64,000 nucleotides of DNA from Nannocystales bacterium. GTDB lineage: Bacteria > Myxococcota_A > Polyangia > Nannocystales > Nannocystaceae. The stretch covers positions 1 to 64,000 of the forward strand of contig JBOEGF010000040.1 of the NCBI GenBank assembly GCA_050633305.1. Reading direction: 5' to 3'. Below are positions 51,190-54,864 of this stretch, in pieces. Numbering within the stretch: the first letter of the stretch is position 1; every line of letters begins with the position of its first letter. The notes under the pieces were generated by a model. It had not been told where the DNA came from, searched no databases, and saw only the letters and a program-made list of their open reading frames with translations. The position numbers were made by a program, and so were the translations under genes.

Positions 51190-52644
51190 CTAGGCAGGCT
51201 TCCAGCCCTTCTTGATCTCGCTGGCAAGGAGTTCCTCGGCGAGTGCGGTTGCGGTGACCTCATCGGGTGCCAGCCGGACCGTTCGCTTGAGCGGGTCCTT
51301 GCGACCGGGGCTGTAGTCGGTGAAGTGCACGACGTACGCGGGAAAGAGGGGGTCGACGCTGTCCTTGTTGGTCTTCCAAACCAACAGCTTGCGAACGGCG
51401 GTCTTGCCCTTGGTCACCTTCGTGAACGCTTCTCTGCGCACGACTTCGCTCTTGGGCAACTCGGCCGGAGGCGCGGAGGTATCCGCTTCGGTGACAAGGA
51501 CGCGTTCGAAGACCTGTCGAACGGGTACATCGCCCACGACAGCTTCTTTGTCGTCGCGGACGCGTACCAGGCGAGGGTGCAGGATGCTGACTCCGGGCAT
51601 TCGCCGCCTCGCCTGCCACGCGTCGTCGTCATGGACGAGGACCATGCGCTGCACGGGGTCTCCGGCGGACGTGTCGCCTTGAACATCGCTGATTCGGATC
51701 TCTACGACGACACTGGGACGCACGGTCTGAAACAAGGCGCCTCTCGTGTTCGCCTCGCTGTAGTTTGAGGTACAGCTCAGCGGCCGCACGGCCTCGCCAA
51801 GCGTACGCCTGTGATCCTCACTTCCGAGGTTTCCACAGTGTCCGATGACTTGATACGTGCCGTCGGGTCGAATGAGGGCCAACAACAGGGAGCTGAGCTG
51901 GGTCGGGTCTTCGGTACGCTCGGTGTAGCCGATGACGACCGCGTCGATGGTGACGCTCGGCTTGACCTTGTAGGTGTGCTGCGACGGGGTGCGCACGACG
52001 AGGCCCTCCGCCTTGCCCCCTGCTGCCCAGGTTTCGAACAGCTCGGAGACCTCGGCTTTGGTGTCACAGCCCTCGCTCTTGACCGCGCGCAGTCGCTTTC
52101 CGCCGCCGAGCAGACGCTGAACGACGTCGAAGCGCTCCTTGTAGCTTGTCAACGGCATCATGGCGTCGCTGTCTCCGCCCCAGACGAGGTCGAAGGCCAT
52201 GAACGCTACGCGCTCGACCTGCGCCTTGGCCTCCCCCGAAAGGGCGCTCGCGAGGTCGCCGTGCCGAGAGCGGCCTTCTTTCCGAGCGGCGAACAGCTCG
52301 CCTGCGATCACGGTTGTGCCGCGGGTTTGCGGAAGGGCTTTCCGCGCCTCCTCGAGGACCGGGATGTTTCCGCTGAGAACTCGGCCTGCGGGGTTGGCGA
52401 GAAACACGTCTCCATCCTCGAACACCATGCACCACTGCTCACCATCGACTTTCGGAGAGACAAGGTACGGACCCGGAGGCAGGCGTCCTTCGAGCTCGTC
52501 GGGAACCAGGGCGGTGTAGCGGCTCGCGATGCCTCGTTTGTAGCGACGGATGGCGCTGGCAAGTTCGGGGTGGGTGACGGAGCCGGCGGGGCTGTGTTGG
52601 CCTTTGCCGCACGGCCGTGCGCTTTCGGTGTTGAAGCTGGGCAT
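51190..52644 (-). CDS. ATP-dependent DNA ligase-like protein with C-terminal WGR-like domain
   Basis: Motifs I KVDGE, III AGELF, IIIa MAFDL, IV EGLVVR, V YKVKP; OB fold ending HPRLVRVRDDK; extra ~90-aa domain ending AEELLASEIKKGW. Confidence 0.85.
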   Translation of the reverse strand: MPSFNTESARPCGKGQHSPAGSVTHPELASAIRRYKRGIASRYTALVPDELEGRLPPGPYLVSPKVDGEQWCMVFEDGDVFLANPAGRVLSGNIPVLEEARKALPQTRGTTVIAGELFAARKEGRSRHGDLASALSGEAKAQVERVAFMAFDLVWGGDSDAMMPLTSYKERFDVVQRLLGGGKRLRAVKSEGCDTKAEVSELFETWAAGGKAEGLVVRTPSQHTYKVKPSVTIDAVVIGYTERTEDPTQLSSLLLALIRPDGTYQVIGHCGNLGSEDHRRTLGEAVRPLSCTSNYSEANTRGALFQTVRPSVVVEIRISDVQGDTSAGDPVQRMVLVHDDDAWQARRRMPGVSILHPRLVRVRDDKEAVVGDVPVRQVFERVLVTEADTSAPPAELPKSEVVRREAFTKVTKGKTAVRKLLVWKTNKDSVDPLFPAYVVHFTDYSPGRKDPLKRTVRLAPDEVTATALAEELLASEIKKGWKPA

Positions 52645-52648
52645 GGCG

Positions 52649-53365
52649 CTACTGTGCTTGGTCGGCCTTGGCGGGAGCGGGGCGCTTGAGTTCGAGGTGG
52701 CTGAGGTGGAGCAACAAGGCGAACTTGTCTCCGTCGACGCGGCCCTCGAGAAAGGCTCGATACGGGGAACCGTTCTCCTGGAGCACCAACGGCTCCTTGC
52801 CGGTGCTGCCGCCTCCGAGCAGGACGACTTCGTCGGACTTCGCGAGCTCTTTCGCCATCGCGGCCAAAAAGTCGAAGCTAAGACCGTCGACGTGGGCGAG
52901 GGCGATGGTGCGGGTGAACGCGAACTTCCGGACCGCGTCTCGCTTCTTCATTGTCTTGCCTGTCCAGCGGACGGGCAGCTCGGCATTGACGTTGGCGTGC
53001 TGGTCCTGTGGAGCCCGGCGCTCGCGTTCGCTGCCGTCGGGGTTGAGGATGACCTCGACGGTATTTGGGATGGCATGCATGACGTCACCCTTGGCGGTCA
53101 AAAACACCCGGGCTGAGGGGACGAACTGTCGGCCGACAATCTCGAGGTCAACCTCGGGATCCCCGGCGACAAGCTGGTCGCCATAGTCCGCGCCTAGGGT
53201 CGCCTCGAGCTGCCCGTGCATGGTGGCAGGGGTCGCGGCCAGGTAGCGTCGAAACTCGATCTCTTGACCCGGCAAGCCTGGCTTGGGACCTGCGGGTGCT
53301 TTGGCGGAGGCGAAGGTGACGGTGGCATCTCGGCCGCCGGCGTTGGCGATATGGATCTGTCGCAT
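52649..53365 (-). CDS. Hypothetical protein, putative divergent Ku-like subunit B
   Basis: ATG at 53365 with GAGGA RBS; FTRTIAL..AMAKELAKSDEVVL..AFLEG..LLLHL..ELKRP resembles the Ku core second half. CDS solid, Ku identity inferred. Confidence 0.55.
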   Translation of the reverse strand: MRQIHIANAGGRDATVTFASAKAPAGPKPGLPGQEIEFRRYLAATPATMHGQLEATLGADYGDQLVAGDPEVDLEIVGRQFVPSARVFLTAKGDVMHAIPNTVEVILNPDGSERERRAPQDQHANVNAELPVRWTGKTMKKRDAVRKFAFTRTIALAHVDGLSFDFLAAMAKELAKSDEVVLLGGGSTGKEPLVLQENGSPYRAFLEGRVDGDKFALLLHLSHLELKRPAPAKADQAQ

Positions 53366-53378
53366 GGTCTGACGTCCT

Positions 53379-53981
53379 CTAGAACATCTCGAAGTCGAGT
53401 TCGTCGCTGTCGTCCTCGTCATCCTCGTCGACGGGGAGGACGGGCTGTTCGAGGGTGCACCACGGGGTCTCGAACGCGTCACCCAGCAGCGCAAAGGTGC
53501 CGTGTTCGTTGGCCACCAGGAACGCGGTCTCGACGTGATAGTCGGCTCTCATGTTGAAGGGAAACCGGAAGATGCTCCCCTCATCCAGCCGGGCTTGTAG
53601 CGCGTCGTCGACTTCGTCTGCATCGAGCATGTAGACCGTCGTGACCGCCGCGTTCAGGAGAGCGTCCGGTTCGACCTCGATCAGCGCCTGTGCGGCACCG
53701 AGGGTCGAAGGGTGCTTCTCGACCGGTTGCCCCTCGGTGTCCAGGCCTACGAGCTCGCTGCCCTGCACCCATCGACCCGTCCGGTCGAAGTAGCCCTGGC
53801 TGGTCATCCCGGACGTCACCAGCATCGAGCCGTCGTCCGTCAGGGTCGCTCGCTTGCACGGGTCGCCGTCCGAGTCGAGGGGGATTCTCTTTCGGGTCGC
53901 GTACAGCTTCTTGCGGTCGAGGCGGGAAAACCCGAAGCTGGATTCGTTTCCATCGAGGGTGACGACGATCGTCCTGGCCAT
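53379..53981 (-). CDS. Hypothetical protein, putative divergent Ku-like subunit A, acidic C-tail
   Basis: YFDRTGRWVQGSELVG, VEPDAL..VYML, L..RL..G.IFRFPFNMR..AFLVAN resemble Ku ring and barrel segments. CDS solid, Ku identity inferred. Confidence 0.55.
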   Translation of the reverse strand: MARTIVVTLDGNESSFGFSRLDRKKLYATRKRIPLDSDGDPCKRATLTDDGSMLVTSGMTSQGYFDRTGRWVQGSELVGLDTEGQPVEKHPSTLGAAQALIEVEPDALLNAAVTTVYMLDADEVDDALQARLDEGSIFRFPFNMRADYHVETAFLVANEHGTFALLGDAFETPWCTLEQPVLPVDEDDEDDSDELDFEMF

Positions 53982-54270: not shown

Positions 54271-54864
54271 CTAAGCAACCGGTTTGAGGCGACCGTCGGG
54301 TAGGATGAGGGCCGCGGTCTCTTGGCGACAATGGTTCGACACGATGAGACCAGAGAGCGTAAGCGTTGCTCCGGTGACGGGCGTGGTCACGGGGTTGGTG
54401 GCGTAGCGAACGACCTCGCCGGTTTGGGGCTCGAGCTGATACCAACGTGTACGGTCCCGCCCGATGACCCAAGCATGTCCTTCGACCCCTCCCTCCACAG
54501 ACAGCTCGCCGATCCCGACCGCCGCGGTGTGCCCCATGGCGATGAGTAGAGAGACCGTCGCGATTGAAAAGTCCTCACAATCACCACGACCACGCCGTAT
54601 CGAGGTCCGTGGCGACAGTGCCTCCTCGACAGGGACCCGGCGTGAGATCTTTCGGCGACCACCCGCCGATCGACGCGAGACCCGTTTCGTATCCCGCTTG
54701 TAGTTGAGCAGGCCTTGGATGACCGTTGAAGCGGCAACCGACGCGGGGCAGGTCCCCGACCTCAGCGCGCGGGCCTGCGGGACGAGATGCTTGACCTCGT
54801 CGGGGCGAATCAGTAGAGACCAAGCCTGATAGCTATCTATTCCTGATCCTCGAACCGAACCCAC
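54271..54864 (-). CDS. Transglutaminase-like cysteine protease
   Basis: GDCEDF.I...SLL...G, GHAWV, W..LEP. Confidence 0.8.
   Translation of the reverse strand: MGSVRGSGIDSYQAWSLLIRPDEVKHLVPQARALRSGTCPASVAASTVIQGLLNYKRDTKRVSRRSAGGRRKISRRVPVEEALSPRTSIRRGRGDCEDFSIATVSLLIAMGHTAAVGIGELSVEGGVEGHAWVIGRDRTRWYQLEPQTGEVVRYATNPVTTPVTGATLTLSGLIVSNHCRQETAALILPDGRLKPVA

Follow-up and report, generated by a model that had tools for sequence, protein, structure and literature searches.

This analysis concerns a 64,000-nucleotide stretch of DNA from a Nannocystales bacterium (contig JBOEGF010000040.1, positions 1 to 64,000; hereafter the window), in which three minus-strand open reading frames (ORFs) follow one another in the order A, B, ligase, with a gap of 13 bp between A and B and of 4 bp between B and the ligase gene:

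53379..53981, minus strand: gene A, 200 aa, one of two divergent Ku-core subunits (predicted fold)
52649..53365, minus strand: gene B, 238 aa, the other of these two subunits (predicted fold)
51190..52644, minus strand: ligase gene, 484 aa, ATP-dependent DNA ligase (PF01068 and PF04679)

A preliminary description of this DNA had placed three co-oriented genes here with exactly these boundaries and gaps, and all three ORFs were confirmed, as were the peptide motifs that it quoted for A and B, all of which were found in the translations. The start of gene B is the ATG that gives 238 aa, as in its homologues; the ORF lister prolongs the frame to an upstream TTG. In bacteria, non-homologous end joining (NHEJ) usually involves a Ku homodimer together with LigD, and eukaryotes use a Ku70/Ku80 heterodimer. 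The evidence presented here makes it fairly likely that the trio is an alternative end-joining system of bacteria, one whose end-binding ring is an obligate Ku heterodimer.

The case for Ku begins with the predicted folds. In both monomer models, built with AlphaFold2 (pLDDT 80.7 for A and 77.4 for B), N- and C-terminal strands form a Ku/SPOC beta-barrel that carries a long Ku-type bridge insertion; in A the barrel strands occupy residues ~5-21 and 97-169, and the bridge ~21-97. Foldseek against the PDB returned, among the matches listed for both models, Ku chains only, with bacterial Ku on top and Ku80 next, the best hits being B. subtilis Ku for A (E 4e-5) and mycobacterial Ku for B (E 1.5e-5). 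VIA, a second and independent search, ranked bacterial Ku first for each protein as well: A aligned with B. subtilis Ku over 144 residues (Z 9.8, rmsd 4.7) and with M. tuberculosis Ku over 175 (Z 9.7, rmsd 8.8), and B with bacterial Ku over 109 (Z 12.6, rmsd 2.6). Among viral models, a phage Ku was the top match for B. The earlier proposal that A and B are Ku-like is thus borne out by models that show barrel and bridge, with bacterial Ku and Ku80 as best matches. The long insertion sets Ku apart from SPOC proteins, and in A it aligns too: the Ku alignments of A cross the bridge and cover 144-175 residues, those with plain SPOC barrels 89-105. A is near-collinear with B. subtilis Ku (residues 1-171 on 20-188). 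From end-point offsets, and not from a residue alignment, R30-K31-R32 of A may lie close to R49 of B. subtilis Ku, a residue that contacts DNA, and R145 of A close to R161. A basic patch in the bridge of A is conserved (R20, R23, K25, R30, K31, R32 and R44), and the conserved basic residues gather at the predicted ring base.

Both proteins also lack the helical Ku C-terminus, as the preliminary description had noted: the structural alignments of A and B stop at residue 188 of B. subtilis Ku, whose core spans 18-244, and neither model has a helix after its final barrel strand, Ku helix 3 and the later arm being missing. The GLVNIP loop, invariant in 30 canonical Ku proteins, is not in the consensus of A or of B. 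According to two studies of canonical bacterial Ku, the GLVNIP loop drives filaments, and the loop and helix 3 serve filament formation and synapsis (PMC12784961, PMC12658125).

The two subunits are barely alike, another point on which the preliminary description proved right. BLAST found no similarity between A and B (best E 4.3), and profile-profile comparison gave E 0.21 when close sets were used and E 0.008 when the B set was diverse, values that are suggestive only. Over the same span B is ~60 residues longer than A, and contains an extra insert of two helices (~47-80), in which an acidic DPE motif is conserved. The C-terminus of A consists of an acidic run and a D-F-x-M-F/L pattern (LDFEMF-type), present in 115 of 120 sequences, and this acidic-aromatic peptide is a candidate for binding a partner. 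Basic, lysine-rich tails of at least 40 residues are found in 21 of 115 close B homologues and, among 80 distant homologues that have the anchor motif, in 11, many of them with PAKK-type repeats. Longer fused forms of A yielded 1 match among 8000 scored candidates, which is weak evidence in either direction.

When modelled together, A and B were predicted to form a large intertwined heterodimer, with a score of 0.81 against 0.00 for the best of three controls; of 157 solved complexes 116 attain this mark, and of 215 mismatched pairs 2 do, counts that are only rough for the alignments used here. The runs agreed in at least 86% of contacts, with a partner pLDDT of at least 79 and 316-350 contacts. 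The predicted interface joins A21-87 to B19-46 and B81-109, leaving the two-helix insert of B outside it, and the contacts run from bridge to bridge and from each tail to the partner's barrel, as in Ku dimers. An A-B interface, a Ku fold and co-occurrence with the ligase had been set in advance as the points on which the proposal could be refuted; an interface is predicted, and none of the three refuted it.

The third gene encodes an ATP-dependent DNA ligase. Its product matches PF01068 (E 1.9e-9) and PF04679 (E 5e-8), each above the Pfam cut-off, and all 27 of its matches among PDB sequences are DNA ligases. It is composed of a short basic N-terminal helix, a nucleotidyltransferase domain (~59-226), an OB domain of the PF04679 type (~249-366) and a C-terminal domain (~396-484). 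Thirteen residues are invariant in 60 of 60 aligned full-length ligases: K65, D67, G68, G115, E116, D152, E213, G214, K226, K228, R363, D365 and K366. We take these to be motifs I (K65-D67-G68), III (G115-E116), IIIa (D152), IV (E213-G214), V (K226/K228) and VI (R363-D365-K366). Both the core motifs and the OB fold announced in the preliminary description are therefore present, and the chemistry would be standard adenylation, as judged from the motifs. Its label "ligase-WGR" was right for the ligase half; as worded, the WGR half was not confirmed, since the window's ligase has no match to Pfam WGR (PF05406) and no W-G-R motif. Across the ligase family, Pfam WGR was detected in 1 of 51 members (E 0.54), and no WGR structure was among the PDB sequence matches of the tail. 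The last 90 residues nevertheless form a conserved module, whose terminal helix alone aligns with a 10-sequence WGR profile (HH probability 72.5, E 3e-5, 38 columns), so that the module may tentatively be called WGR-like. Matches of the tail to PPR proteins in the PDB sequence search were rejected as the summed repeats of one helix. Pfam and NCBIfam scans found no polymerase or phosphoesterase domain in the ligase, and Pfam no large DNA-binding domain. Its best NCBIfam match was TIGR02779 (E 2e-16), far under the cut-off, as were all NHEJ-ligase models.

The three genes travel together. Homologues numbered 346 for A and 734 for B, the B profile yielding 552 clusters at 50% identity. In the Genome Taxonomy Database (GTDB), 420 stretches encode a B relative, the closest being labelled Nannocystaceae, Myxococcota, and the best 80 were examined as loci. 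A, B and the ligase are all present in 73 of these 80 (two of them rearranged), in line with the co-conservation and co-occurrence that the preliminary description had called for; five loci are without A, which lies elsewhere in three of those five genomes, and two are cut off ahead of the ligase. Over 66 loci, the pairwise distances calculated for each gene of the trio correlate with those for the other two (Spearman 0.72-0.80, uncorrected for relatedness). We also surveyed 301 genomes of the host phylum, host included, scoring 9-10 candidates per genome, so that some may have been missed: A was present in 46, B in 43 and both in 42. This co-inheritance, with A in 42 of 43 B genomes, argues for a heterodimer rather than a homodimer. 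The module is spread patchily over many phyla, and most of its loci are single copies set amid housekeeping genes. A search for a conserved fourth gene found none; nor was any polymerase or phosphoesterase family present among 72 co-oriented flanking ORFs.

Some loci carry further ligase genes. In L020, L034, L044 and L052 an NAD-dependent-ligase-like gene lies directly downstream of the ligase, overlapping the operon end; it encodes ~615-630 aa with a partial adenylation-domain match, OB and BRCT, and a related ORF occurs in L082. In L026 (3613-5319), a BRCT-ligase-OB_2-WGR gene is directly upstream of A, which puts two ATP-dependent ligase classes in one gene run.

The distribution of the module is largely complementary to that of canonical Ku, defined here by PF02735, with Ku ORFs picked by match coordinates. 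In the host phylum PF02735 was found in 63 of 301 genomes, and the host alone has both Ku and the module; among the other 300, A or B occurs in 46 and canonical Ku in 62, and none is shared, against 9.5 expected (hypergeometric 9e-6). Avoidance also holds within the three families in which both occur, their totals being given (P 0.003). Of the 80 trio genomes, nine have canonical Ku, namely the eight closest relatives and the genome at the centre of a second-phylum sample (G331), and 71 of the 72 beyond the closest eight are without it. The LigD polymerase domain PF21686 was present in 3 of 53 B-positive genomes. Strict mutual exclusion is rejected, as the host, five of seven genomes of its genus, the genomes of the eight closest loci and G331 have both systems; replacement of canonical Ku by the module is the rule, and the host clade is the exception. 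Since both systems are kept in the host clade, a reading of pure redundancy is weakened for the host genome.

It is at this point that a role in sealing nicks has to be considered, in which A and B would form a loading or sliding ring that helps a minimal ligase on nicks, gaps or abasic-site intermediates in the manner of LigC, with the WGR-like domain as nick sensor. The absence from the ligase of end-processing domains and of a large DNA-binding domain would suit such a role, as would the missing Ku synapsis surfaces and the neighbouring ligases of a nick-sealing kind just described (downstream in four loci, upstream in one). However, a closed Ku-type ring normally loads at a free end (PMC5577460), and the genes with which the module shows a complementary distribution are Ku and LigD; we consider this role improbable.

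A subfamily of the module is mobile, and here the ligase is fused to an ATPase. The fusion, which is not in the window, was surveyed in 40 regions, a non-random set picked for divergence or copy number. It gives proteins of ~1030-1120 aa that comprise ligase, middle domain and AAA module, the last matching PF00004 and AAA_lid_3, with VAT, p97 and Cdc48 as best PDB matches (E ~1e-118, summed over two modules); the fused protein has one such module, against two in p97. It was found in G018, G042, G278, G557, G465 and G024 (where it is stop-interrupted), and probably in G036, where the contig ends. The 7.1 Mb genome G018 has 13 diverged A-B-ligase/AAA copies (loci L113-L121 and L171-L174), with ~70-98% DNA identity among the nine compared, in elements of roughly 6-10 kb; six of the 13 lie beside a DUF2924 gene and a large serine recombinase, and several beside a Fic gene. 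The same pairing with DUF2924 and a large serine recombinase recurs in G557 and G465, and the G024 copy sits amid terminase and baseplate-like genes.

Such contexts, together with the patchy distribution over many phyla and the coexistence with Ku-LigD in the host clade, which suggests a non-redundant job, favour a mobile-element or conflict module. Its ring would cap, and its ligase would seal, the ends of foreign DNA or of the element's own, so that an excised element is circularised, DNA cut by restriction or CRISPR is rescued, or ends are protected in a Gam-like way; the chromosomal copies would be domesticated forms and not a pathway of general repair. This explanation is unlikely, though less so than the nick-sealing one. 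The window's copy has no neighbouring mobility gene among the listed ORFs, and the GC of the trio is that of the remaining window, with no shift; most loci, as noted above, are single-copy amid housekeeping genes; no B relative was found among phage records (50,697) or among plasmid records (72,556), nor A or B in IMG/VR pattern scans, and PADLOC has no model for the short ligase. The avoidance of canonical Ku better fits a common host function.

Two further observations concern the fusion-type genes. In L122 (4547-7666; P0393, residues ~480-720), the middle domain between the WGR-like and AAA modules is conserved, has several conserved cysteines and matches no Pfam family. The G042 fusion-type trio is flanked by a TOTE-type AEP primase (PF22548) and an AbiEi/AbiEii-type pair (L122:10962-14312, plus strand), which suggests another mobile context.

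The end-joining reading that we favour would proceed as follows. A and B, very divergent Ku-core paralogues, would intertwine into a heterodimeric ring, as the models predict, which, by analogy with Ku, would thread onto a double-strand DNA end through the conserved basic residues of its base and shield that end. The ring would then recruit its dedicated ligase, most likely through the C-terminal peptide of A or the acidic insert of B, either of which would replace the absent Ku C-terminal arm, while the WGR-like domain may help to engage the break. The ligase, whose motifs are intact, would seal ligatable ends by standard adenylation; because the system has no built-in polymerase or phosphoesterase, damaged ends would need host enzymes. 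The ring left on the sealed DNA would have to come off. In eukaryotes, p97 is reported to pull out Ku that is trapped after ligation (PMC5577460), and in the mobile subfamily the fused p97/Cdc48-type ATPase may by analogy unload the A/B ring. In most lineages the module would act in place of canonical Ku-LigD, and in the host clade beside it. The exclusion of homodimers, DNA binding, contact with the ligase and the repair function itself are steps that we infer. A more ambitious version of this reading, in which the trio is a second complete end-joining pathway whose obligate Ku heterodimer is invisible to sequence searches, evolved independently of eukaryotes, replaces Ku-LigD in hundreds of species without recognisable Ku and has a mobile form with a p97-like ring-stripping motor, is put forward tentatively, as something that may well not hold in full; if it does, the trio would be a prokaryotic parallel of Ku70/80 and p97 and would give a direct handle on the unloading of bacterial Ku rings.

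Several results weigh against the end-joining reading. (i) By sequence nothing links A or B to Ku: neither matched the Ku family at E<=1, nor did any of 76 diverse members of the B family, as judged from the 25 families listed out of 32; profile-profile comparison with 30 canonical Ku proteins gave probabilities of 1.0 and 0.2, and no Ku was among the PDB sequence matches of either protein. (ii) The structural likeness is limited, with TM-scores to Ku of at most 0.46 and a high rmsd across full monomers, and the score of the predicted complex may echo a likeness to solved Ku dimers. (iii) End bridging is unaccounted for, because the GLVNIP loop and helix 3 are absent. (iv) The co-occurrence statistics treat kin as independent and many genomes are incomplete; in the second phylum (n=250), with 9 module and 35 Ku genomes, none shared, P is 0.25, short of significance when taken by itself, and G331, at the centre of that sample, has module and Ku. 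(v) The host has a divergent Ku-LigD arrangement on another contig (G000:C11:41272-44356; L001, L002), five of the seven genomes of its genus have both the module and canonical Ku-LigD, and the eight closest loci are all in Ku-positive genomes. (vi) A is strongly acidic, with a net charge of -24 (family median -21; canonical Ku cores -6) that lies chiefly in barrel and tail. (vii) Eukaryotic SPOC barrels, which do not ring DNA, come close behind Ku in VIA (for A, Z 8.9 against 9.8, a tie; for B, Z 11.5 against 12.6).

These last two points, and the low confidence of the bridges in the monomer models, are also what would be expected if A and B shared the barrel only and acted on the ligase as an adaptor or regulator protein of the SPOC type, one that does not encircle DNA. 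Against this stand the long Ku-type insertion present in both A and B, each predicted to intertwine with its partner's, the conserved basic residues at the ring base, and the Foldseek results, which put Ku chains and not SPOC first; of all the explanations weighed here, we find the adaptor the hardest to credit.

How does the trio compare with known systems? With bacterial Ku and LigD (B. subtilis, mycobacteria) it shares the barrel-and-bridge fold, a dimeric ring (predicted), an operon with a ligase of the PF01068 and PF04679 type, and an optional lysine-rich tail, the PAKK-type tails of B resembling the tail of M. smegmatis Ku (PMC3553676). It differs in important ways: (i) its subunits are non-identical, with no detectable sequence link to PF02735 and no clear link to each other; (ii) it is without the Ku C-terminal helices, the GLVNIP loop and the polymerase and phosphoesterase; and (iii) its ligase has a WGR-like tail and falls below NHEJ-ligase cut-offs. 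The module would probably work like Ku-dependent end joining, yet by sequence it fails PF02735 membership. With eukaryotic Ku70/Ku80, ligase IV and p97/Cdc48 it has in common a heterodimeric ring (predicted), Ku80 as next-best structural match and, in the mobile subfamily, a p97/Cdc48-family ATPase, but vWA, SAP and DNA-PK-binding domains and XRCC4/XLF are lacking, and the ATPase is single-module and ligase-fused. There is no evidence that A and B descend from eukaryotic Ku or the reverse, and structure scores cannot order descent; a phylogeny of Ku published in 2025 assigns the duplication to eukaryotes (PMC11936186).

Other comparisons involve ligases and Ku paralogues. The NT-OB_2-WGR ligases and Prochlorococcus AD-Lig W are ATP-dependent ligases with a WGR-type module, described by Williamson and colleagues, found in deltaproteobacteria and planctomycetes and with no known Ku partner (PMC7470946; bioRxiv 2020.05.11.089284). 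Their OB domain is OB_2 (PF14743) and their WGR is one that Pfam detects, at the N-terminus in AD-Lig W, whereas the trio ligase has a PF04679 OB and a C-terminal module unseen by Pfam; its assignment to either class was rejected because the OB type and the order of domains differ. The trio ligase is likewise distinct from the BRCT-ligase-OB_2-WGR kind, because L026 carries both side by side. The KuA, KuB and KuC paralogues of Streptomyces are ordinary Ku proteins with PF02735, 36-40% identical to mycobacterial Ku and variably present (PMC5124664); they and tandem ku pairs resemble the trio in that one bacterium has more than one Ku-type gene, and A and B differ from them in being nearly always co-inherited and unrecognisable by sequence. 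Tandem canonical ku matches, one scoring far lower than the other, were seen at G163:C16, G177:C291, G264:C109, G387:C252, G467:C223, G483:C2 and G491:C68, those of G163 both inside one 773-aa frame; it is possible that such pairs are independent steps toward a Ku heterodimer.

The consequences, if the reading is true, would reach beyond the window. The census that finds bacterial end joining in ~22% of genomes comes from Ku and LigD domain searches, and the classes of Sharda et al. 2020, including a 'nonconventional' one (Ku plus ligase-only), rest on detected Ku/LigD domains (PMC7719229). Since the module occurs mostly where Ku and LigD are absent, surveys of these domains would score its genomes as Ku-less; a Ku pair recognisable by structure only, in ~15% of one phylum's genomes (46/300) and at least 420 GTDB stretches, would call for revision of the census. 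What is expected of CRISPR editing, and of survival after breaks, would be altered for myxobacteria, planctomycetes and other groups, and the textbook contrast between bacterial homodimer and eukaryotic heterodimer would be affected. The trio would offer a three-protein system for ring asymmetry, for ligase recruitment without the Ku C-terminal arm and, with the p97-like fusion, for the removal of trapped rings in bacteria. No published description of the module was found in the open-access literature, supplements excluded; a mention in comparative-genomics supplements is possible.

Database searches with the two proteins themselves gave little. Neither has a family match in Pfam, NCBIfam, PADLOC or PHROGs. 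In the ESM Atlas there was no usable match for A, and for B the Atlas model is poor (pTM 0.20) and the matches name no family. A match of the A profile to a phage head-closure protein in the PDB sequence search (E 0.014, one hairpin) was rejected because fold searches give it no support.

In the window, neither a sigma-70 promoter nor a terminator was found for the trio above chance, and no second copy of the module was found in the host genome. Upstream of gene A, 290 bp off, is a co-oriented ORF with a transglutaminase-like domain (54271-54864, minus strand; PF01841, E 3e-5), which is absent from the conserved neighbour clusters of the module; the other flank is a convergent unrelated ORF. 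Elsewhere, decaying or partial forms of the module occur in L177 (G101), L162 (G556) and L175 (G105) and as P0247 and P0389, and include an A joined to pieces of the ligase, a ligase with an internal deletion, an A that stands alone, a fusion of B to the tail domain of the ligase (P0247) and a degenerate A-B fusion (P0389). These two fusions, P0247 and P0389, have the look of deletion products and were left out of the counts.

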